A stretch of 64,000 nucleotides of DNA from sequence record OZ335964.1, one strand, 5' to 3'. Source of the DNA: a phage. Below the pieces are notes generated by a model. It saw only the letters and a program-made list of their open reading frames with translations. It was not told the DNA's origin and made no database searches. Shown here piece by piece: positions 16,963 through 31,262 of the stretch (the first letter of the stretch is position 1; each line of letters starts with the position of its first letter). A program made the position numbers and the translations under genes.

Positions 16963-17176
16963 CAAATTCTAAGAAATATTCTGGAACGATATAACCGTTA
17001 AAGTCATTGCACTTATAAAAATGTGGTGCATTTAATGCTGGATGAGCATTAGTAAAGAGTTTACCCTCTAGAAACAGAATGTAATTAATAGGTCTAATAC
17101 CGACAGAATCAGGATCTAATCCCTTTTCTCTCAGTTCAGCCAGCGTTAAAACTCGTCCAGATCGTAACTTAGCCAT
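16955..17176 (-). CDS. hypothetical protein
   Basis: 73 aa ATG-initiated ORF. Confidence 0.45.
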   Translation of the reverse strand: MAKLRSGRVLTLAELREKGLDPDSVGIRPINYILFLEGKLFTNAHPALNAPHFYKCNDFNGYIVPEYFLEFDD

Positions 17177-17462
17177 GATTTACCCCAAATTCATCAAGAT
17201 TGTGTCGCAGCATTTCAGAGTATTTTTCTACTTCCTTGATCTTAGTGTGGATATCCACGATCTCATCTTCACTATCAGATAGTTTAATGGCAATCGCGAG
17301 CGTGCTTTTACCAGCTTTCATAGTCTCTTTCCGTTCAACCAATAGATCCGCGTGTTTCAATAGCAATTCTTCACGTCGAACATAAGCGACGGTCAAAGCC
17401 TCATCAGCAATTTCTAAAGCATTTTCAGCGACACCAACAACCATTTTACGAGTAGACAGCAT
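17169..17462 (-). CDS. hypothetical protein (predicted helical)
   Basis: 97 aa ATG-initiated ORF. Confidence 0.45.
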   Translation of the reverse strand: MLSTRKMVVGVAENALEIADEALTVAYVRREELLLKHADLLVERKETMKAGKSTLAIAIKLSDSEDEIVDIHTKIKEVEKYSEMLRHNLDEFGVNHG

Positions 17463-17476
17463 AAATTCACCTCACA

Positions 17477-17785
17477 TTATTTCACGTTAACGCCGTCATC
17501 AATCCAGCCGACGCTATTTGGTTTAACAGTTTTACCATAGGATGCATACTTAATCAAGCATGGTTTAACATCGTTATCAAATCTTCCTAAACGTACTCCA
17601 AAATCAGGAATATCCATGTATGCGGCTTTATATCCCCATGTGCCATATTCAGAATCAATCTCAACCGGACGGCCTTTAAAAGCATACACTACACCGTGAC
17701 GGTCAACGATAACATAGCAATAGCCAGCCGGAAGATACACAGTTTCGCCGTAAACTTTAACTGGAGTAGCAGAAGAGATAAACAT
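17477..17785 (-). CDS. hypothetical protein
   Basis: 102 aa; GAGGATTATATT leader; promoter-stem-loop upstream. Confidence 0.5.
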   Translation of the reverse strand: MFISSATPVKVYGETVYLPAGYCYVIVDRHGVVYAFKGRPVEIDSEYGTWGYKAAYMDIPDFGVRLGRFDNDVKPCLIKYASYGKTVKPNSVGWIDDGVNVK

Positions 17786-17819
17786 AATATAATCCTCACA
17801 TCGTTCATTTGATGCGGTT

Positions 17820-17848
17820 ATTATAGGATAACCGCATTTTCATGTCAA
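17820..17848 (-). promoter_or_regulatory. sigma70-like early promoter with stem-loop (TTGACA-N17-TATAAT)
   Basis: minus strand; hairpin GCGGTTAT..ATAACCGC in spacer. Confidence 0.55.
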
Positions 17849-17854
17849 CAGTTT

Positions 17855-18163
17855 TTAAAAATCTTCTTCCGGTTTATATCGACCGTCATCGACTGGTTTT
17901 GGACTGAATCCTGTATGTGTGCGCGGTTTAACTTCCGGTTTGCCAGCAATCATCAAACCAAAACATTTCAATCCTTTATAGCACATAACAATATTAACCA
18001 CTGTCCACGTTATAGGCCATACGATTGCAGCAATACAAAATGCTCCTGTATCGACCTCTTTGGTGTCCTTGTCGAATCTGGCGTACAAGCAGAATACTAG
18101 ATACGAGATCATTGCACCTGTAGGCCAGATATAAAGCACATTAACAATATCTTGTGTTGTCAC
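17855..18163 (-). CDS. small membrane protein
   Basis: ORF track 17855..18229; GTG start at 18163 preceded by GGAGGATAAC right after upstream stop; hydrophobic helices. Confidence 0.5.
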   Translation of the reverse strand: MTTQDIVNVLYIWPTGAMISYLVFCLYARFDKDTKEVDTGAFCIAAIVWPITWTVVNIVMCYKGLKCFGLMIAGKPEVKPRTHTGFSPKPVDDGRYKPEEDF

Positions 18164-18173
18164 GTTATCCTCC

Positions 18174-18452
18174 TTACATGTCTTGCAGTGCATAAAAGCA
18201 TTTTTCTTCGTAGTCATAGAAAATGTCAAAGTATGCTTTTTCTACATACTCGCCATTGATCCAAGCGGCAGTAACAATCAGAGTGGTCCAGTTAGATCCG
18301 CTCTCAACGGTAAAGGTTTTAATACCCAGCTTCGCTGCTAAGTCGAACGCAAACCGGACGCAACCACGGCAGGAAGTGATATTGGAAGTTTTGATTTTAA
18401 AGCCACCGCGAGTTTTAGAAATTTCTACTTTAGCGAAAGACAGGTTGCTCAT
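18174..18452 (-). CDS. hypothetical protein
   Basis: 92 aa; AAGGAGAATCAAA leader; promoter-stem-loop upstream. Confidence 0.5.
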   Translation of the reverse strand: MSNLSFAKVEISKTRGGFKIKTSNITSCRGCVRFAFDLAAKLGIKTFTVESGSNWTTLIVTAAWINGEYVEKAYFDIFYDYEEKCFYALQDM

Positions 18453-18494
18453 TTTGATTCTCCTTAAGAAAGTGTGTTTCGTTTTGATGTGTGT

Positions 18495-18523
18495 AGTATA
18501 GGGGATCGGTGATCCCCTGTCAA
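18495..18523 (-). promoter_or_regulatory. sigma70-like early promoter with stem-loop (TTGACA-N17-TATACT)
   Basis: minus strand; spacer is palindrome GGGGATCACCGATCCCC; conserved leader ...AAAACGAAACACAC...AAGGAGAATCAAA. Confidence 0.55.
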
Positions 18524-18532
18524 CAACTTTTT

Positions 18533-18862
18533 TTATGAGTTTAGTGAATTAACTACTACATCAAAATGATGTACAGAGTACACCTTATTAAACACATACT
18601 CATCGTGTTTAGGAATAGCCCCTAATCGCTCTATTTCGCTCGCTAACACGATAAACCGTTTATCCGGTGCATTTACCTTATATGCTTCAACAACGCACGG
18701 GAAACGCGTTTCAGAGAGTTCTGGATAGTTTTCTGAATCCATCAGGACAATGAATACCCTGTTACATTGATTGTAGAATCCTGTTTTTGATTTCATCAAG
18801 TTTTCTTCTCTGTACAATTCGTGCAATCTTCCTTTCATGATTTCGTTGGTTCTTGTCTTCAC
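18533..18862 (-). CDS. hypothetical protein (start uncertain; candidates 18838, 18796, 18742)
   Basis: ORF track coordinates; overlaps upstream gene, no unambiguous RBS. Confidence 0.35.
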   Translation of the reverse strand: MKTRTNEIMKGRLHELYREENLMKSKTGFYNQCNRVFIVLMDSENYPELSETRFPCVVEAYKVNAPDKRFIVLASEIERLGAIPKHDEYVFNKVYSVHHFDVVVNSLNS

Positions 18863-19100
18863 AGTTTACCCACTCAACAAGATCTTTACCTAACTCGAAA
18901 GCCCATTCTCGGTCTTGCTTTACGTTTTGTAGGTATGGACTTTCTGACACTCTACGAAGTGATGTTGTCGTAACAAGAATGATCCCAAGAATGGTCGGAT
19001 GTTCCTTTCCATATACAATAGGACGCGAGTCACTATCAATACCTTGTAAGAAGGTGTATCCTGAATCACTTAGAATCATATACTTTTTCATTTCACACAT
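18762..19100 (-). CDS. hypothetical protein
   Basis: ORF track starts with GTG at 19103; ATG at 19100. Confidence 0.45.
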   Translation of the reverse strand: MCEMKKYMILSDSGYTFLQGIDSDSRPIVYGKEHPTILGIILVTTTSLRRVSESPYLQNVKQDREWAFELGKDLVEWVNCEDKNQRNHERKIARIVQRRKLDEIKNRILQSM

Positions 19101-19357
19101 CACAGTTTCCTCAACCAGTTATTAAAGCGAGCAAACCATGATGCTTTTCGTGCTTCTTTTACTTTATGTGCACGAAAACCACTGAAACACCATTCATAAT
19201 CATCACCGAAACATGATTCAACAGGAACACCCGCATTTCGTAGTTCTCTGGTCTTTATCATAAATCCTTGACATAAGGGGCGACCTTCAACAATGATAGG
19301 AAGTTTAACTTTTTCCATGAAAGTATACCCAGCACGGTCAATAATTTCAATTTTCAT
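19100..19357 (-). CDS. hypothetical protein
   Basis: 85 aa ATG-initiated ORF. Confidence 0.5.
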   Translation of the reverse strand: MKIEIIDRAGYTFMEKVKLPIIVEGRPLCQGFMIKTRELRNAGVPVESCFGDDYEWCFSGFRAHKVKEARKASWFARFNNWLRKL

Positions 19358-19602
19358 TTTACATTGTCTCCATAGATCTTTCCATCAATATCAATTTCAC
19401 CAGCACGAACATCTAGGATAAGATGCGGTAGGTGTATGCAGTTTTCCCACCCTACGCGCTTCATTTCTTCTACGGTAACGTAAGCCCATCCGTTCGCTGT
19501 AATAAAGTCTACTTCAACCTTGAGAGGAAAGCAAGACTTTTTTATGTCTTCAAATCCGACAATGTGTTTTGTCGTTGAATATGGAATATATCCGGTGATC
19601 AT
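19354..19602 (-). CDS. hypothetical protein
   Basis: 82 aa; GGAGATCACAAA leader. Confidence 0.5.
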   Translation of the reverse strand: MITGYIPYSTTKHIVGFEDIKKSCFPLKVEVDFITANGWAYVTVEEMKRVGWENCIHLPHLILDVRAGEIDIDGKIYGDNVK

Positions 19603-20033
19603 TTTGTGATCTCCTTATACTCAACACACCATAAGCGGGTAGCCCATGATAAACGCTCATAACGCTGGCAGAAATCGGACCATAGATATTGTGTACCGTC
19701 TTGCATAGTTGAAATATGCGTTTTCTCTCCTACTTTCACGAATGAAGTATTCGATTTTGTGATCTCGACCGGAGTATATCCGAAAGCTGGTTCCAAGTCA
19801 ACATCTGAACTAAATGCTAATTTAACAGAATTTGTTTTTCTGACCGCTGTCCGGTTTCCTTCTGGGTACAGCACAGCAGGTTTAGCGCCTAAGCGGATAA
19901 ACTCAGTGTTTTTAATAAACAGAATATCATGATAACCGTCATATTCCGACACTTCCATAGTAACAGGAAAATCGACATGTTCTAAACCCGGTAGATCTCG
20001 CATATCATGAAATGTAGCCATCAACTTTTTCAT
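19599..20033 (-). CDS. hypothetical protein
   Basis: ORF track 19599..20060; ATG at 20033 with GAGGAA RBS, no overlap with upstream gene. Confidence 0.5.
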   Translation of the reverse strand: MKKLMATFHDMRDLPGLEHVDFPVTMEVSEYDGYHDILFIKNTEFIRLGAKPAVLYPEGNRTAVRKTNSVKLAFSSDVDLEPAFGYTPVEITKSNTSFVKVGEKTHISTMQDGTQYLWSDFCQRYERLSWATRLWCVEYKEITK

Positions 20034-20043
20034 TCTATATTCC

Positions 20044-20241
20044 TCACTCTTCTGTTTCATTTCTTTTATATGGTACTATAACAGGATTAATACAGCAAGC
20101 ACCAATTACGTTATGAGCACCACAATTTAAACATTTATAGTCATGGAACTTATTAAGGAATCGACCAAACTCATAACCGACTAGCGCCGCATGTACTTGA
20201 GTCTCGATCTCATCCATATCAGCCAATGTTTTAGCCTTCAT
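20044..20241 (-). CDS. small Cys-containing hypothetical protein
   Basis: ORF track 20044..20280; ATG at 20241 with GAGGATTATACT leader; CLNCGAHNVIGACC. Confidence 0.45.
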   Translation of the reverse strand: MKAKTLADMDEIETQVHAALVGYEFGRFLNKFHDYKCLNCGAHNVIGACCINPVIVPYKRNETEE

Positions 20242-20251
20242 AGTATAATCC

Positions 20252-20542
20252 TCAAACGGTAGTTTTGCGAAGATGGTCATTACATGCTTTTAATGCATCA
20301 GTCGCGGTGTCATAGCGAGTATTATCATAGCACCAGTAACCATCGGTCAACTGATAAATCAATCCATCCCTTTTAGCTTCGATGAAAGATAACTCTTTGA
20401 AAGTTTCTACTTTCTTTGCTGATACTCCACGGTCACGGCGCTTATAGAGTTTAGCTAAAATGCGTTCAGCTTGTTCCTCTTTATCACCAGACAGATCCCA
20501 AATAATGTTGCGGATATGTTTGATTAATTGTTCAGTGGTCAT
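20252..20542 (-). CDS. hypothetical protein
   Basis: 96 aa; AAGGAGAATCAAAG leader; promoter-stem-loop upstream. Confidence 0.5.
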   Translation of the reverse strand: MTTEQLIKHIRNIIWDLSGDKEEQAERILAKLYKRRDRGVSAKKVETFKELSFIEAKRDGLIYQLTDGYWCYDNTRYDTATDALKACNDHLRKTTV

Positions 20543-20571
20543 CTTTGATTCTCCTTAGTTGGTATGTGTGC

Positions 20572-20599
20572 ATTATAGCACTATGACTTTCATTGTCAA
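20572..20599 (-). promoter_or_regulatory. sigma70-like early promoter (TTGACA-N16-TATAAT)
   Basis: minus strand; preceded by intrinsic terminator and A-tract. Confidence 0.55.
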
Positions 20600-20602
20600 C
20601 AA

Positions 20603-20638
20603 CTAAAAACAAAAAAGGCTACCCCTAAGGATAGCCCA
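20603..20638 (-). terminator. intrinsic terminator after gp38-like gene
   Basis: GGCUAUCC..GGGUAGCC hairpin + U6 on minus strand. Confidence 0.65.
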
Positions 20639-20643
20639 TAAAA

Positions 20644-21444
20644 TTACACGCGAGCACCGTAGATCGTGCCTACTTTATCCCAGCGAGGGGCATTGCCAGT
20701 AACAGCCTTACCAGCTGCACCAGCACCACTGGCATTATAGTTTGATGTACGAACGGCAGCACCACCAGCCGCACCAACGTTACCACCAGCACCACTCATG
20801 TTATTACCATCAACGGTTACTTTACCACCTGCGGCGGTTAACGATGCATTACCACCATTACCACGACCACCACGACCACCTGTACCGAAAGGACGACCAC
20901 CACCGCCGCCTGCAACGCCAGCTAATGTGAAGTTATAGTCTATGGACCATCCGCCGCCGCCACCGCCACCGCCAGCAATTGCACCATTATTCGTAATACG
21001 TAAGCGTGTACCGATGCCATTATTGATCGCTGTACCCCCGGCGGTCGCACGAACTAAAGCATCTCCAGATCCACCACTAGACCCAGATCCGTTACCGCCA
21101 CGACCATATACAGTGACGCCGGAATTAATGATAAGAGTTACATATTCATTAGTTAATGAGCTAGGGAAATCCAGACACGGAACACCAGCAGAATTAGAAA
21201 CAAGATCCCCGGTAATAGTAACTACTACCGGAGTAGACCCCTGTGATTTTAGATAGTTAATCAGAGTATCTTTATTGTAGTTGTGGTTTGCACCAATGCT
21301 ATAATGAATCTCTTTAGAGCGTCCGACCATCGCCGACATATACGCCGGACGACCTAAGCGAACAGCTTGCATTGCGGCGCTCATCCACCGTTGACCAGTC
21401 TCAGCAACAGCCGATGATCCTACCCAACCTGCTTTAATTGCCAT
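20644..21444 (-). CDS. 38: gp38-like receptor-recognising adhesin with glycine-rich motifs (T2-type)
   Basis: 266 aa; N-terminus MAIKAGWVGSSAVAETGQRWMS resembles remembered T2-type gp38; C-terminal half has poly-Gly tracts (GGGGGGGG, GGGGGRPFGTGGRGG); GAGGAAACC RBS. Confidence 0.65.
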   Translation of the reverse strand: MAIKAGWVGSSAVAETGQRWMSAAMQAVRLGRPAYMSAMVGRSKEIHYSIGANHNYNKDTLINYLKSQGSTPVVVTITGDLVSNSAGVPCLDFPSSLTNEYVTLIINSGVTVYGRGGNGSGSSGGSGDALVRATAGGTAINNGIGTRLRITNNGAIAGGGGGGGGWSIDYNFTLAGVAGGGGGRPFGTGGRGGRGNGGNASLTAAGGKVTVDGNNMSGAGGNVGAAGGAAVRTSNYNASGAGAAGKAVTGNAPRWDKVGTIYGARV

Positions 21445-23003: not shown

Positions 23004-23032
23004 ATTATGCTATACCCTATTCTTGTTGTCAA
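23004..23032 (-). promoter_or_regulatory. sigma70-like early promoter (TTGACA-N17-CATAAT)
   Basis: minus strand; directly after terminator of the 712 aa gene. Confidence 0.5.
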
Positions 23033-23035
23033 CAC

Positions 23036-23069
23036 CTAAAAACGAAAAAAGCCACCCTTTCGGATGGCT
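23036..23069 (-). terminator. intrinsic terminator after 712 aa gene
   Basis: GCCAUCC-GAAA-GGGUGGC hairpin + U6 on minus strand. Confidence 0.65.
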
Positions 23070-23078
23070 TTTGATTAA

Positions 23079-25217
23079 TTAAGGATTTCGGCCAGGGTAA
23101 TGCTTAAATCGACCGTAACCAGTTTCAATGCTCATATCTCGTTGACGCACAATCGCCCAATAACCGTTGCAGGAATCTTGAAGATATAGATCCTTACCTT
23201 TTAGGAACTCATTAAAAATAGTGATCTGCCAATCATAATAGACCGCATCAGCAAGACTACCCATCCAACCGTGCGGATCTTCCATCAGTTCGACAAGTTC
23301 ATCAATTACCCAATATGGACAAGGGCTAAATTTACCCTTACTAAAATCGCTGAACATAGTAACGATCTTGACTTCCGGTCGAGGCTGATCGGGAATATCT
23401 GGACGTTTGTTAACTACGACTTGCACATATTTTGTGTAGCCTACAATTTCACCTTCATCTAAGTTAGTGTTATTGTTTTTGTCGGCAAATGCAACAAATT
23501 TGTAAACACCAGAATCATTTAATGTTGCATTAGCTTTACGATATACCGGAACACTGGAATCTGCAATAGGTAATTTAATACCACTTTTACTAAATTCATA
23601 GGTCGGCACATAGTTAGATGGCGGTTTAATCATGGTTGCTTCCAGCACCAACGGATCACCCTCAGTAATTTGCACCGGATGCGGACCGTCAAATTCCATA
23701 TTAGGAATTACTTCAACTTTATAGGTTGCACGTCCTGCAATATCATATCCGGTATGCGCACTATGAGGATCTCGGCTAGGACTATCGCGATATTCATGCG
23801 ACCAGATACCATTATGTTCTTTATCCGCCGCATCAGTGATCTTATATTCTTTCGTTTCAATCGGCAATTCTGTTACAAGAACATCGTTTTTCAAAATTGC
23901 TAACGAACGAGTTTGAGTCGGATCATTACTTGCTGGAGGTTCTGGATCAACAATTTTAATAACAATAGGTTCCCCAACCTCAATACCGCTATAATCATGC
24001 TCGACGTCATAGATATCTAACATACGGCGATCATAAAATAACGGGCGAGAAGTTGGAGTTCTCTGCGGATCATCATCACGCGCAGGAGCTACCAACAATT
24101 GCAGGGCTACACTATTATCATATTGCAATTTCTCAAGACTAATACGGTCATAACCAGGATCACCATATTTCTTGCTTTGTAATTGCGTACCACCTAACAT
24201 CCACGTAAAGTAGACATTATTTGTTAATAAACCATAATGTCGGTTCCATGAATTATCAACAGGGGAAACTGGCATATCAATACTAACAGAAGACCCAGAA
24301 GGATAACGAAATTCAATAGCAGAAAAATCTCGGCTAAAAAATTCGTTTTCCTTGACGTTAACGCGGAATCGATGGCGCTGACCTTCCAGATACGATTCAC
24401 TACTACCAGGACCATTTTCAACCTTATAGGAACGAATACAAGCGACATAATCACCTGCATCTGCTTCGGTAGCATGTTTCGTCACATATAAAGTTTTATT
24501 CTTTGATTCATAAACCAAAGTACCATCGCCACGTTCCAGACGATAACGAACTATGGTATGTTCAGCGTCATTTGGGGCATCGTCTTCTACAGTATAATAG
24601 GCAGGTGCATATTTTTGTACATTGAATACAGCTAAATTTTCTCGAATTGTTGCTGTAAACGGATATACAAATTTAACATCACCTGTTTCGTCGCTTAATT
24701 CCATTCGATAAAGACCGGAAAATTCAGGCCATGCGAATTTTGCAATTTTAAATTCACGATGGTCCAATCCCAAATCACCATCTACGGAATCAACTAGACC
24801 ATTATTATAATACAAGTCAACAGAGATATTAGCAGGAATATTACTACGAAAAACAATTTTCGCTTTAAGTTCATCACCAATATTAAATGATGTCGGAGGA
24901 TATACATGTTCAACATATGGATTATCAAATAACTTAAATGTAAAGTTTTCCGTGCCAATATCGATAGAATCACCACTAAATGATGTGTCGCCTAGCGCAT
25001 AACCTCGAACGTTTACAGACCATCCGGTAACATCGTCTTCTTTAACGGAATCCAATGTAAATGTCGGAGAGGCACTTGTTGCTATAATCTGGTCATTTTT
25101 CTTCCAGACATAACCTTTTTTCGGTTTTGTTGAATCAGGGCTTTCATCAACAATACAGCAGCTAAAATCGTGCGGCATCCAAATCATATTATTGACCGTG
25201 GTGTTTACTACTGCCAT
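23079..25217 (-). CDS. large protein with Ig-like domain signatures (possible virion decoration or adhesin)
   Basis: 712 aa; DxGxYxC-type Ig motifs (EADAGDYVACI, LNDSGVYKFVAF); strong AGGAGGATTC RBS; own terminator. Confidence 0.55.
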   Translation of the reverse strand: MAVVNTTVNNMIWMPHDFSCCIVDESPDSTKPKKGYVWKKNDQIIATSASPTFTLDSVKEDDVTGWSVNVRGYALGDTSFSGDSIDIGTENFTFKLFDNPYVEHVYPPTSFNIGDELKAKIVFRSNIPANISVDLYYNNGLVDSVDGDLGLDHREFKIAKFAWPEFSGLYRMELSDETGDVKFVYPFTATIRENLAVFNVQKYAPAYYTVEDDAPNDAEHTIVRYRLERGDGTLVYESKNKTLYVTKHATEADAGDYVACIRSYKVENGPGSSESYLEGQRHRFRVNVKENEFFSRDFSAIEFRYPSGSSVSIDMPVSPVDNSWNRHYGLLTNNVYFTWMLGGTQLQSKKYGDPGYDRISLEKLQYDNSVALQLLVAPARDDDPQRTPTSRPLFYDRRMLDIYDVEHDYSGIEVGEPIVIKIVDPEPPASNDPTQTRSLAILKNDVLVTELPIETKEYKITDAADKEHNGIWSHEYRDSPSRDPHSAHTGYDIAGRATYKVEVIPNMEFDGPHPVQITEGDPLVLEATMIKPPSNYVPTYEFSKSGIKLPIADSSVPVYRKANATLNDSGVYKFVAFADKNNNTNLDEGEIVGYTKYVQVVVNKRPDIPDQPRPEVKIVTMFSDFSKGKFSPCPYWVIDELVELMEDPHGWMGSLADAVYYDWQITIFNEFLKGKDLYLQDSCNGYWAIVRQRDMSIETGYGRFKHYPGRNP

Positions 25218-25238
25218 GAATCCTCCTTATAACTGACA

Positions 25239-25637
25239 TTAAGCCAGTCGAGTGAGTTTATAAATTGTTTTAAAGCATAAAACTTTAATATCGTCTAAAA
25301 CGCTCTGCAAAGAGCTATCAACATCATTATAAATCTCACTAGCCATTTGCGTTAATTCCTGCAAATAGGCAATTTCGTTAATCTCCTTACGGACGACCAA
25401 CGTTGGTTGATACCGACCAGTGATCCCAATATTGGTTTCTGTGAAATTATCAACCAATTCTTGCATTTCAAGATAGAACTCTTCTAGAGCCTTATGTTTT
25501 GAATAAGACCCAGGTCCAGTTACCCCAAAATGCGCAGAATGCATATAAGTAACGCTCATTAGGCATTCACCAATAAAGCGGTCTACTTTATTAGCTTTTC
25601 CTCCCTCGGAAGTCTGCCTAAATTCACTGAATTTCAT
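25239..25637 (-). CDS. ferritin/Dps-like protein (putative)
   Basis: 133 aa; HSAHFGVTGPGSYSKHKALEEFY resembles the Dps HxxHW.V.GP.F..LH..FEE.Y helix motif; GGAGAA RBS. Confidence 0.4.
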   Translation of the reverse strand: MKFSEFRQTSEGGKANKVDRFIGECLMSVTYMHSAHFGVTGPGSYSKHKALEEFYLEMQELVDNFTETNIGITGRYQPTLVVRKEINEIAYLQELTQMASEIYNDVDSSLQSVLDDIKVLCFKTIYKLTRLA

Positions 25638-25923
25638 TATATCGATTCTCCATTTTATTAAGCACAATAAATTGATTTGCGGCATACTCTCCCATCATGA
25701 AACAATGTTTAGCATCCATACATTTACTACGTGCGTATGTTTTCATTATGTGGTCATGAAATTTTTGACTTGTCTCCACCGATGGTTGTATTTTGTTTAT
25801 ATACACGATCATAGCACCGTCGAAGTAATCAGTAAAGTCACCAACAGGACACTGATCGGCACTTACGCTACCAACTGCCATAACGCATATACCCGCAACG
25901 AGTGTTTTACGAATAAATGACAT
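25624..25923 (-). CDS. secreted small protein, RI-like (candidate lysis-inhibition antiholin)
   Basis: 99 aa; N-terminal signal-anchor; size, Cys pair and position next to tk as T4 rI; MKTYARSKC...C resembles T4 RI MRTTYKNDPC...C. Confidence 0.45.
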   Translation of the reverse strand: MSFIRKTLVAGICVMAVGSVSADQCPVGDFTDYFDGAMIVYINKIQPSVETSQKFHDHIMKTYARSKCMDAKHCFMMGEYAANQFIVLNKMENRYNEIQ

Positions 25924-25984
25924 AAGTCATTCCCCCAGATTAAAAATTTCAAGTATATTTATAATCTGGGGATATATTTACGCC

Positions 25985-27085: not shown

Positions 27086-27276
27086 AGATGACTCCAATAT
27101 AATCGACATTTACATTTAGGGCAATGCGGTTCTTTAATATAATACCCGTCTGTCTTTGGAACACTAACAGGAGCGGTTTTTATATTGTATTCAGTGAAAC
27201 AACGAAAACAAGTTACGTTTTCTACAGACTGACGTTTCACCCAATCACCGGAATAGAGATCATTTTTATTTGTCAT
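27082..27276 (-). CDS. Cys-rich small protein (zinc-ribbon-like)
   Basis: ATG at 27276; CFRCF...HCPKCKC. Confidence 0.45.
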   Translation of the reverse strand: MTNKNDLYSGDWVKRQSVENVTCFRCFTEYNIKTAPVSVPKTDGYYIKEPHCPKCKCRLYWSHL

Positions 27277-27721
27277 ATTCAACCACCACAATGTTAATGT
27301 CTGGAGTAGCAATATTAATGATCTCTTCTACACATTCCCACTCAAGGCCACCGATACCGCAACCGATTTTAGGAATATAGAAAGGCTGTATAGCACCTTC
27401 AAAAACATCATTGATAGTCTCAAATCCTTTCAGGATAGCACCATATTCAGCATTTGGACCCGGTCGGAATTGGGTATAGAGATTCACCCCGCACCAGTTA
27501 TAACCATTAACTTGATGCGTCCAGACACTAAACCCACCCAGCTTTTCTACCTTACCGCGAGAAGTTTGCTTGTCAATTTCTAACGCTTGCGGGAACTCTT
27601 TCGCGATATCCGCAGCAATACCAGCGCCCATAGTATGAAAACAATTACAACCATGAATTAAATGACCGTTTCCTTGTTTAAACAGGGCGATGAGATCGCC
27701 CTTTACAGTATCAATAATCAT
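27266..27721 (-). CDS. macro-domain-like protein (putative ADP-ribose binding/processing)
   Basis: 151 aa; HGCNCFHTMGAGIAADI resembles the macro-domain N..N...G.G(V/I) loop. Confidence 0.55.
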   Translation of the reverse strand: MIIDTVKGDLIALFKQGNGHLIHGCNCFHTMGAGIAADIAKEFPQALEIDKQTSRGKVEKLGGFSVWTHQVNGYNWCGVNLYTQFRPGPNAEYGAILKGFETINDVFEGAIQPFYIPKIGCGIGGLEWECVEEIINIATPDINIVVVEYDK

Positions 27722-29203: not shown

Positions 29204-29542
29204 TTATTCTCCTTTCTTAAACAAATTGCGAAGCCAGTATACAAACGGGATTTCTTTAAACTTGAACTTGTCAATAGTTAATTCTTTAGTAGCAAGATGA
29301 ATACCATAAGCATCATGTGTCACGATATGCCATTTTCTATAGCCCAAATGTGAACAACCGTCTGAATCTAGGTTAATAAGAGTTTCTCGCTCACTAGGAT
29401 TATTTTTCCACAATTTTGTAACCGGGTCGCACATAATTCGACCTAGCGTACCATGAATAATCTCACAACGGTAAAGTTTTCCAGCAGTGAGATAGGCGCA
29501 CCCGTCATAGTCGGTATAAACAAACACTTCTTTAACACTCAT
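29204..29542 (-). CDS. small paralog (C.HL.G..W family), double-domain member
   Basis: ATG at 29542; DYDGCAYLTAGKLY and DSDGCSHLGYRKWHIV. Confidence 0.5.
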   Translation of the reverse strand: MSVKEVFVYTDYDGCAYLTAGKLYRCEIIHGTLGRIMCDPVTKLWKNNPSERETLINLDSDGCSHLGYRKWHIVTHDAYGIHLATKELTIDKFKFKEIPFVYWLRNLFKKGE

Positions 29543-29573
29543 TTTAATACTCCTTTGTTGTTTCGATGGGGGT

Positions 29574-29602
29574 ATATTACTACCCCCGATCATGTGTGTC
29601 AA
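29574..29602 (-). promoter_or_regulatory. sigma70-like early promoter with stem-loop (TTGACA-N17-TAATAT)
   Basis: minus strand; hairpin GGGGGTA..TACCCCC. Confidence 0.45.
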
Positions 29603-29848
29603 CTACTTTTTCAAGAATTTTTTAATTGCGTTCCAAAGACCTTTATTCTCAGGTTGTTTTGGTTCTTCGATCAGCGTCCATGTTCGACCGTCTAAGTGTG
29701 CACAATTTTTAAGGCAAATAAAAATCTGGTGTCCCTTATCATCACGGATATAACCACTATTCGCAAATCTTTCATGTGGTGTATATTCATACAGTGTATT
29801 TGGTGTAATATACTTGCGGTTACTATAAGGTGTCATCACATACATCAT
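29603..29848 (-). CDS. small paralog (C.HL.G..W family)
   Basis: ATG at 29848 (ATGA overlap), GGGAG RBS; CAHLDGRTWTLI. Confidence 0.5.
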   Translation of the reverse strand: MMYVMTPYSNRKYITPNTLYEYTPHERFANSGYIRDDKGHQIFICLKNCAHLDGRTWTLIEEPKQPENKGLWNAIKKFLKK

Positions 29849-30039
29849 GGTACTAACTCCCAACGATCACCGCGAAGATGAGAACATCCACCATCAAGAA
29901 GGATCGTAATACGAAACCCCGCATCATCTTCAATATACCCGATAGTCGGTGGATGTTCGTCGTCTCGTGCCGGGGTAAAATCATACATCTTTCCGGGCGT
30001 AATATCTTGTCCTTTATTGCTATTGGTATAAACTTGCAT
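29845..30039 (-). CDS. small paralog (C.HL.G..W family)
   Basis: 64 aa; CSHLRGDRWELV. Confidence 0.5.
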   Translation of the reverse strand: MQVYTNSNKGQDITPGKMYDFTPARDDEHPPTIGYIEDDAGFRITILLDGGCSHLRGDRWELVP

Positions 30040-30060
30040 TTTCTTAATCTCCTATATTAA

Positions 30061-30759
30061 CTAACCACGGGTATAGTGTTCCAGAACAACGGTCAGATGA
30101 ATATATTCTAATAAATCTTTCCAAAAGTCAACATCTGGTTCTTCCGGCATACCGTTTTTCTTTGCCTCTTCACGCGCGAGTTTAACACGCTCGTAGAGAT
30201 CTTTCAATTCTTCCCGCACATTATCAAAGGTTCTTTCTCCTAACTTACACGCTAAAATAGAAGAACGTCGCGCGAGTGGGAATTGTAGATCACCTGTCTG
30301 ATAGATTTCAAGTAGCTGATAACCAACACGCAGAGCATGAGAAAGATCTTTCCAGTTACTGAAATACTTTTCAGATTTTGCTACCTGCTTTTTGAGATAA
30401 CCAGACAAACCCCACATCCCAACATGATAGAATTTATCGCGATGTGTTCGGATGTATTCCCATTCTCTGGAGGATTCAATCAACATGTTACTAGGCGCGT
30501 GCACCATGTCAATAGCGCCAATATCACCTTTACATGCCAGATTGATAAACCGTTTTAGACTGAACATATTAACGTCAATATCGTCTTTGGTGTTCTTGAT
30601 ACCTTGACCGCTAGTGCTTTGGTCATAGTGTTCTTTCATCGTTCCTAAGATAATTTCTTTCGCAGTCGGAACAAAGATACCACGATAATCTTTATCGGAA
30701 TTTTCAGTATCAAGACCGTATAAGTGAGATCCGAAGACCATTTTAACCATTGTATGCAT
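30061..30759 (-). CDS. Pol-beta-superfamily nucleotidyltransferase (putative)
   Basis: 232 aa; FGSHLYGLDTENSDKDYRGIF = GS...G...SD.D nucleotidyltransferase motif near N-terminus. Confidence 0.6.
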   Translation of the reverse strand: MHTMVKMVFGSHLYGLDTENSDKDYRGIFVPTAKEIILGTMKEHYDQSTSGQGIKNTKDDIDVNMFSLKRFINLACKGDIGAIDMVHAPSNMLIESSREWEYIRTHRDKFYHVGMWGLSGYLKKQVAKSEKYFSNWKDLSHALRVGYQLLEIYQTGDLQFPLARRSSILACKLGERTFDNVREELKDLYERVKLAREEAKKNGMPEEPDVDFWKDLLEYIHLTVVLEHYTRG

Positions 30760-30801
30760 AATTAAACCCTCAGTTGATTAAGAGATTGCATCATATCATC
30801 A

Positions 30802-30835
30802 TAAAACGAAAAAGCCAACCCTTTTCGGATTGGCT
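30802..30835 (-). terminator. intrinsic terminator after GrcA-like gene
   Basis: AGCCAAUCC..GGGUUGGCU hairpin + U-run on minus strand. Confidence 0.65.
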
Positions 30836-30845
30836 TGATGAAAAA

Positions 30846-31262
30846 TTAGAGAGATTCGGTAAAGGTGCGCGAAATAACATCACGTTGTTGGTCTGGAGTC
30901 AGACTATTGAATCTTACGGCATATCCGCTAACGCGAATGGTTAGTTGCGGATACTTATCAGGATTAGCAACCGCATCAAGAAGAAGATCGCGACTCATCA
31001 CATTGATATTCGCGTGCTGACCTCCTTCGACAACCGGAGCACCAGTATCTACAATAACAGGACGGAAGCTAGTTGTGTGCAGTGCCAGCGAATCGACGTC
31101 TTCTGCGGTGATCACATGGTCTTCTGCGAAAGTTTTACTAACAATTACTTTAGCGCCGATCAGTGCTTTCGGTTCGGATACCAGAATCATAGGCGCGAAA
31201 TGTCCACCAATAATAGTACCTTTATGCTCACCTTTCATGATTTGAATTGCTTTAAATTCCAT
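30846..31262 (-). CDS. grcA: autonomous glycyl radical cofactor GrcA/YfiD-like protein
   Basis: 138 aa; C-terminus [33 protein letters not shown] matches remembered E. coli GrcA/PflB glycyl radical domain. Confidence 0.85.

Follow-up and report, generated by a model that had tools for sequence, protein, structure and literature searches.

What is the function of the largest gene on the early-gene strand of an RB49-group phage genome, when all six GenBank genomes that carry it annotate it as "hypothetical"? The gene lies in a stretch of phage DNA of 64,000 nucleotides (nt; sequence record OZ335964.1), here called the window, at 23079..25217 on the minus strand, and encodes 712 amino acids (aa). 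Positions given below are those of the window unless a phage record is named, and all features listed with them are on the minus strand. The counterpart in Shigella phage JK32 (MK962753; Straboviridae, Krischvirus, RB49 group) is JK32_00086, and our literature search for JK32, SSG23 and other krischviruses returned no account of it. An earlier reading made from the letters alone (the sequence-only reading) had noted immunoglobulin (Ig)-like domain cores and a resemblance to Hoc-like decoration proteins. We consider it probable (about 0.7) that the gene encodes a third, divergent capsid decoration fibre of the Hoc family, which assigns a likely role to a gene that its carrier genomes leave unnamed.

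The open reading frame (ORF) starts with ATG, as had been proposed. No ORF is bigger on the minus-strand half of the window, which holds the early/middle genes, and only one is bigger in the window as a whole, in agreement with its earlier description as the largest non-core gene of the early region. The window and JK32 copies differ at 10 nt (nine synonymous changes and one non-synonymous), and the window is collinear with the JK32 record only over ~21.3-29.5 kb, with breaks at about 17000-21300 and 29500-31200. Thus, the window comes from a very close relative of JK32 and not from an identical record. We identified 16 homologues of the protein, with a lowest identity of 43%. The frame is intact (706-718 aa) in the carriers and in metagenomic relatives (43-83% identity), and the ratio of non-synonymous to synonymous substitution rates (dN/dS) among carriers is 0.11-0.15, as under purifying selection, although the values are approximate due to saturation of dS. 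To judge from its sequence, this is a real gene rather than a chance ORF, given the 16 homologues, the low dN/dS and the 9:1 synonymous excess relative to the JK32 copy. The protein is acidic, as published for Hocs (isoelectric point (pI) 4.90 for the whole protein and 4.74 for its C-terminal anchor), and its N-terminal sequence has no evident signal peptide or membrane segment.

Profile searches with Pfam give little indication of the fold. For the whole protein, Ig_3 (17 bits, cut-off 30) and Ig_2 (15.9 bits, cut-off 27) are both sub-threshold, Y_Y_Y and DUF7151 are at chance level, and neither Big_2 nor I-set, the families that the sequence-only reading had suggested checking, was matched. 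This check is uninformative here, as Pfam does not see the Ig domains at threshold, and therefore fold prediction was needed. An AlphaFold2 model, for which a 15-sequence family alignment was the input (predicted local distance difference test score (pLDDT) 81), has six beta-sandwich domains; after these come a Pro-rich linker and, at the C-terminus, an alpha/beta domain. The best Foldseek matches of the full-length model in the PDB are six-Ig ectodomains (e.g., contactin Ig1-6, E=2e-18). Thus the Ig-like cores are supported by the predicted structure, and the first part of the outcome that had been named as telling against the reading, a lack of predicted Ig-like folds, was not seen.

In the AlphaFold2 model, the six domains have the following approximate limits. 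D1 (aa 1-98; 24924..25217) is distal and the most variable, and is followed by D2 (aa 99-192; 24642..24923), D3 (aa 193-292; 24342..24641), D4 (aa 293-403; 24009..24341), which is the longest and is predicted with lower confidence, D5 (aa 404-505; 23703..24008) and D6 (aa 506-604; 23406..23702), the site of the sub-threshold Ig_3 match. The Pro-rich linker (aa 605-619; 23361..23405) comes after D6. Both motifs quoted in the sequence-only reading are present, EADAGDYVACIRSY in D3 (residues 251-264) and LNDSGVYKFVAF in D6 (residues 565-576). They correspond to the (D/E/N)-x-(G/S)-x-(Y/W) turn that precedes strand F of these domains, and the same pattern occurs in D2, D4 and D5.

The most informative part of the protein is its C-terminal domain (aa 620-712; 23082..23360), which is also the most conserved. 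The sequence-only reading called this domain unique. It is instead homologous, though divergent, to the domain by which T4 Hoc binds the capsid, as shown by profile-profile, PHROG 1149 and fold matches. The full-length Foldseek searches of the PDB and BFVD were dominated by generic Ig arrays and were uninformative for the anchor, so a separate anchor-only model was made, with canonical Hoc anchors in its input alignment. Its top and sole credible PDB match is 8t1x_X, the T4 Hoc anchor (template-modelling (TM) scores 0.50/0.55); all other matches have probabilities of at most 0.44. In a phmmer search of PDB sequences, residues 609-687 align with T4 Hoc 284-361 (E=0.033). The last 123 residues alone match the Hoc family PHROG 1149 (E=4e-5; E=4e-6 for the whole protein) at profile positions 1064-1142 of 1150, the segment also matched by both canonical Hocs of JK32. 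An hhalign comparison of the last 101 residues of the family with six Hoc anchors gave 97% probability (E=1.2e-10, 73 columns), and a search of 1.84 billion proteins with the family profile brought up P0044 and P0059, both genuine Hocs, through matches that span the last Ig domain and the anchor. In a homologue search with the mixed anchor alignment, all matches were short proteins (at most ~190 aa), so no other architectures built on this anchor subtype came to light.

T4 Hoc has the same overall organization, a string of Ig-like domains and then a C-terminal alpha/beta capsid-binding domain (PDB 8T1X, 5VF3; Fokine et al., 2023, PMC10385173). That domain comprises residues 281-376, and the residues that contact gp23* have been listed (PMC10385173). 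Seven T4 positions (W310, D313, E314, S356, N358, G359 and Y360) are invariant in the 15-member family; D313 is D639 in the 712-aa protein. The pair W309/W310 corresponds to Y635/W636, both invariant, and a Tyr at the first of these positions is found in canonical Hocs too (JK32_00170 and the Hoc of Klebsiella phage PSKm4DII). The axis loop E355-S-R-N-G359 plus Y360 reads D-S-C-N-G-Y in the family (D-S-K-N-G-Y in P0016), with E355 conservatively replaced by Asp but R357 lost. The anchor keeps as its core W-V-x-D-E, where helix 1 begins, and the loop S-x-N-G-Y, both of which lie at the capsomer axis in T4 (PMC10385173).

The anchor and the distal domain also evolve differently. Mean pairwise identity is 85% in the anchor and 57% in D1, with dN/dS of 0.04-0.09 and 0.13-0.42, respectively. 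This combination of a conserved anchor and a variable distal domain is the evolutionary pattern of Hoc. The protein thus shares with T4 Hoc the helix start, the loop, an acidic pI, dispensability and conserved anchor/variable Ig domains. It differs in having six rather than three Ig-like domains, all below the Pfam threshold, an anchor identity of only ~21-26%, several replaced contact residues, a longer conserved tail after NGY, and a gene that follows rI and rI.-1 rather than lying beside inh and g24.

JK32 has two annotated Hocs, JK32_00169 (408 aa) and JK32_00170 (846 aa), both beside inh and ~60 kb from the 712-aa gene. As these two canonical Hocs are already present, the 712-aa gene is a third, displaced Hoc-anchored paralogue. 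JK32_00169 is 90% identical to RB49 Hoc, and both come from the same phage lineage and family as the 712-aa protein, with display presumably on the same gp23 lattice. Unlike that protein, JK32_00169 matches PHROG 1149 at E=3e-78, has Ig_2, Ig_3 and I-set matches above threshold and occupies the hoc locus. A crystal structure of the N-terminal domains of RB49 Hoc has been reported, according to a paper that cites it.

Long Ig strings and more than one Hoc-anchored protein per genome have precedents in Serratia phage Muldoon, which has a 1174-aa Hoc with 10 Ig domains as well as a 314-aa Hoc, in other multi-Hoc phages such as Enterobacter phage PG7 (PMC10385173), and in JK32_00170 itself. That account mentions at most two Hoc-like proteins per phage, whereas in phages of the JK32 type the number of anchor-bearing genes is three, and the additional one lies at a remote locus and has a distinct anchor subtype. 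D6 aligns weakly to T5 pb10 (PDB 5lxk, E=0.39), and homology of the anchor to pb10 was not detected. In pb10, the capsid-binding domain is N-terminal and there is a single Ig domain. This T5 protein decorates the capsid as a monomer in the centre of hexamers and exposes an Ig-like domain (PMC5292684).

The gene flanks matched 59 Krischvirus records, to which the following counts apply. Six are carriers (JK32, Brandy, SSG23, SFHK24, G2248 and UPWr_E1), and about 53 of the 59 have only a pseudogene from which part of the sequence is deleted. In RB49, GEC-3S and Phi1, the first ~90-130 nt and a 3' remnant are left, the ATG is changed to ATA and the Shine-Dalgarno sequence is damaged. The deletion junction of Phi1 lies at the direct repeat GGAAGACCC(G) and joins approximately residue 30 to 646; RB49 and GEC-3S have two different deletions, one of them at a GGTCGATT repeat. 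Overall, the start codon was lost first, and the coding sequence was then shortened by internal deletions between direct repeats of 8-10 bp. The gene is thus ancestral and was inactivated and then eroded independently, because the non-carriers keep remnants of both ends, a dead start codon and different internal junctions. Since most krischviruses have lost it, the gene is dispensable, like T4 Hoc.

The longer canonical Hoc has a parallel history. Intact or divergent copies of JK32_00170 (JK32 record 111202-113742) are confined to these six carriers, and the other 53 krischviruses retain only the ~120-nt 3' end, annotated as RB49p168.2. Two of the three Hoc genes were lost together in the RB49 lineage. 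We also recognized Phi1 ORF084.1 and the metagenomic P0019 as remnants of the 712-aa gene. P0019 (118 aa) has an unrelated N-terminus of ~55 aa joined to anchor residues ~653-712, which represents a third kind of partial deletion or replacement.

Expression signals bear out the strong ribosome-binding site and the dedicated terminator that the sequence-only reading had noted. The Shine-Dalgarno sequence AAGGAGG (25222..25228) is 4 nt before the ATG. An intrinsic terminator (23047..23072), 6 nt past the stop codon, has an 11-bp stem (-16.6 kcal/mol, z-score -5.1) followed by a U-run, and is functionally conserved in relatives L010 and L012. Directly upstream are rI.-1 (DUF5856; 25239..25637), whose stop is 21 nt before the ATG, and the antiholin gene rI (25624..25923), the first gene of a putative late unit. 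The gene order tk, rI, rI.-1 and 712-aa gene persists in relatives with as little as 43% protein identity. A T4-type late-promoter box, TATAAATA (25956..25963), matches the consensus upstream of rI and would be the first candidate late start for rI, rI.-1 and the 712-aa gene. Only four TATAAATA boxes occur in the window, and the one at 25963..25956 is on the rI strand. It is kept in nine of nine relatives examined, including members with 43-62% identity. T4 hoc is a late gene. A late transcript of rI, rI.-1 and the 712-aa gene that ends at 23047 is plausible, because the late box is upstream and we found no terminator-like site between it and the 712-aa gene. Thus "early region", the term used in the sequence-only reading, holds for position and not for timing, given the conserved late-promoter box in the same putative transcription unit. 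We did not accept the TATAAACT at ~25262, just ahead of the 712-aa gene, as a promoter, since it departs from the late-box consensus and the rI.-1 coding sequence accounts for its conservation.

Based on these features, the protein would be made in the cytoplasm, where the lack of an evident signal peptide would place it, from transcription that is probably at least partly late, starting at the TATAAATA box, covering rI and rI.-1 and ending at the terminator (23072..23047). Once the capsid has expanded, the anchor would dock at the centre of gp23* hexamers, each of which would take a single fibre, as with T4 Hoc. The string of six Ig-like domains may then project as a fibre of ~300 Å, if scaled from the 180 Å of the three-Ig T4 Hoc. 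Sites would be shared or contested with the canonical Hocs of 408 and 846 aa, giving a capsid with several fibre lengths, and the variable distal domains could adhere weakly to glycans, to mucus or to the surfaces of bacteria.

The docking segment of JK32 gp23 (residues 257-383) is identical to that of RB49, which has a single Hoc. For this reason, we rejected coevolution of the divergent anchor with a special gp23. D344-P345...R352 of this segment was placed through the spacing of T4 motif residues D336/P337/R344 and not from an alignment. The region of gp23 around residues 130-260 (JK32 numbering), which we take to be the surface insertion domain, is hypervariable in krischviruses (70-82% identity to JK32), and the remainder is nearly invariant. 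A gp23 variant (137-256) that tracks the gene was also rejected: the JK32 variant is unique, and the other carriers are no closer to it than are non-carriers.

Several observations weigh against a third Hoc at the canonical site. Four gp23 contacts that are highly or well conserved among Hocs (Y293, H295, R300 and R357; PMC10385173) are replaced. Y293 is T620 and H295 is F622, both invariant in the family, and R300 is S626 in 14 of the 15 members. R357 is Cys in 14 members and Lys in one, with loss of the R357-D313 salt bridge. Both canonical JK32 Hocs, for comparison, have YVHPIPWR and ESRNG intact. Given the four replacements, the affinity, orientation or even docking site of the anchor may differ from those of T4 Hoc. 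Evidence for the anchor fold is also not entirely independent, as the anchor-only model drew on canonical Hoc anchors; a family-only model has the same order of secondary-structure elements, at a pLDDT of 37-67. Pairwise BLASTP against the two canonical JK32 Hocs aligns the anchor in register but at non-significant E-values (0.012-0.15), and profile methods were therefore needed. The late promoter is a consensus match and not a mapped start, and the gene lies away from the hoc locus, amid a region otherwise full of early genes. Our literature search found neither virion proteomics nor cryo-electron microscopy for any carrier.

The replaced contacts bear most directly on the site at which the fibre binds. 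It might be a virion decoration fibre whose divergent anchor docks off the canonical Hoc site, without competing with the canonical Hocs, for example at another surface of the gp23 lattice, at gp24 vertices, or at a fixed subset or orientation of hexamers. The near invariance of Y293T, H295F, R300S and R357C in a family whose canonical JK32 relatives keep the original residues favours this reading. A tail of ~25 residues after NGY (WAIVRQ..M.IETGYGRFKHY), which extends outside the range comparable with canonical anchors, is strongly conserved in the family, and the presence of three paralogues makes more sense if not all of them vie for a single position on each hexamer. However, the capsomer-axis motifs (the S-x-N-G-Y loop and W-V-x-D-E helix start) are kept, the gp23 docking segment is the same in carriers and non-carriers, the variable insertion domain does not co-vary with gene presence, and no result points to another site. 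We thus regard docking elsewhere as unlikely. It is similarly doubtful that the distinct anchor subtype, defined by the four replaced contacts and the C-terminal extension, docks differently so as to build independent, non-competing layers of Ig fibres on the capsid. If it does, RB49-type phages, in losing the two extra Hocs together, would have moved away from a niche in which fibres of multiple lengths are an advantage, for example mucosal surfaces.

Readings in which the protein is not a capsid fibre fit the data less well. Ig-like domains decorate tail proteins too, PHROG 3995 ("tail protein") weakly matches D6 (E=4e-4), and a gp38 adhesin gene lies ~1.6 kb downstream, so the product could sit on the tail, collar or fibres, or act as a free adhesin with a re-purposed Hoc-like C-terminus. 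Yet the PHROG 3995 match spans a single generic Ig domain, the anchor has no matches beyond profiles of the Hoc family and the structure of the T4 Hoc anchor, and the terminator/promoter cassette and five small ORFs part gp38 from the 712-aa gene; we find this placement improbable. Still less credible is a non-structural early or intracellular protein, perhaps linked to lysis inhibition, with an Ig string that binds a host or phage factor inside the cell. The order tk, rI, rI.-1 and 712-aa gene is held in metagenomic relatives with 62% and 43% protein identity, and read-through from upstream early promoters is possible on this strand. But rI and rI.-1 are intact in the 53 phages without the gene and therefore do not depend on it, and the architecture and anchor are typical of a capsid decoration protein; the lack of a signal peptide or membrane segment also tells against such a role. 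Least probable of all is a decaying relic without function in present carriers. Widespread pseudogenisation in krischviruses invites this idea, and it is opposed by the intact frame across 43-83% identity, the dN/dS of 0.11-0.15, the nine synonymous changes to one non-synonymous and the conserved ribosome-binding site and terminator. We therefore favour a Hoc-family capsid fibre, which supports the resemblance to Hoc-like decoration proteins noted in the sequence-only reading.

As a Hoc-family fibre, the protein is a fairly ordinary member of a known family, and the current view of Hoc biology is unchanged. The Hoc-like class, including two-Hoc phages and long Ig strings, is already known, and PHROG 1149 weakly detects this protein. 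New are the recognition of an unannotated family as Hoc-like, a phage with three Hocs, a distinct anchor subtype and a series of six carriers versus 53 losses. Some RB49-like phages thus have genes for three Hoc-anchored fibres, of which one lies away from the hoc locus and behind the putative rI late promoter. Hoc serves as a platform for display and has been implicated in the adherence of phages to mucus. The divergent anchor combined with six Ig-like domains makes this a natural Hoc variant of interest with regard to affinity, site and ligand, and the six carriers and 53 decayed copies form a natural loss-of-function series on the use of extra capsid fibres.

The terminator of the 712-aa gene is followed by a near-consensus sigma-70 promoter for the next gene (TTGACA-17-CATAAT; 23004..23032), with AAGGAGA and the next ATG behind it. 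This cassette is kept in carriers and non-carriers. In its make-up of terminator, promoter, Shine-Dalgarno sequence and ATG, it resembles the PeSL cassettes of phi1 and RB49, which likewise combine a stem-loop terminator with a strong sigma-70 promoter (Arbiol, Comeau, Krisch et al., 2010, PMC2839356). As with PeSLs, it sits in a hyperplastic region of small ORFans (PMC2839356), and the genes downstream of the 712-aa gene differ in the relatives with 62% and 43% identity. We nevertheless rejected a recent insertion by PeSL recombination because non-carriers hold remnants of both gene ends. The losses are also unlike PeSL-PeSL exchange (PMC2839356), as they are internal deletions within the coding sequence.

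A hairpin (25933..25971; -19.8 kcal/mol, z-score -3.8) surrounds the late-promoter box, and its 3' arm overlaps the rI ribosome-binding site. The hairpin is conserved in the distant relatives L010 and L012, with different stem sequences. T4 e and I-TevI have such a combination of hairpin and late promoter and are translated only from late transcripts that start inside the structure (PMC3014915). By analogy, this would imply that the antiholin rI of krischviruses is translated only late.

Other genes in the vicinity include a Gly-rich ORF of 266 aa (20644..21444), annotated as the gp38 tail-fibre adhesin in JK32 and Phi1, which lies among small early-type ORFs. A 151-aa ORF (27266..27721) is a homologue of Tk.4. 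Its positional counterpart in L012 weakly matches the Pfam Macro-domain, so an ADP-ribose-binding or hydrolase function is possible. Between g23 and g24, JK32 (record 101397-106447) has ~4.7 kb of extra genes for proteins of 102, 572, 307, 614 ("tropomyosin-like") and 50 aa, and RB49 has only ~0.5 kb of non-coding DNA and a 50-aa ORF. Encoded as they are among the head genes, these extra proteins may be additional structural or decoration components.

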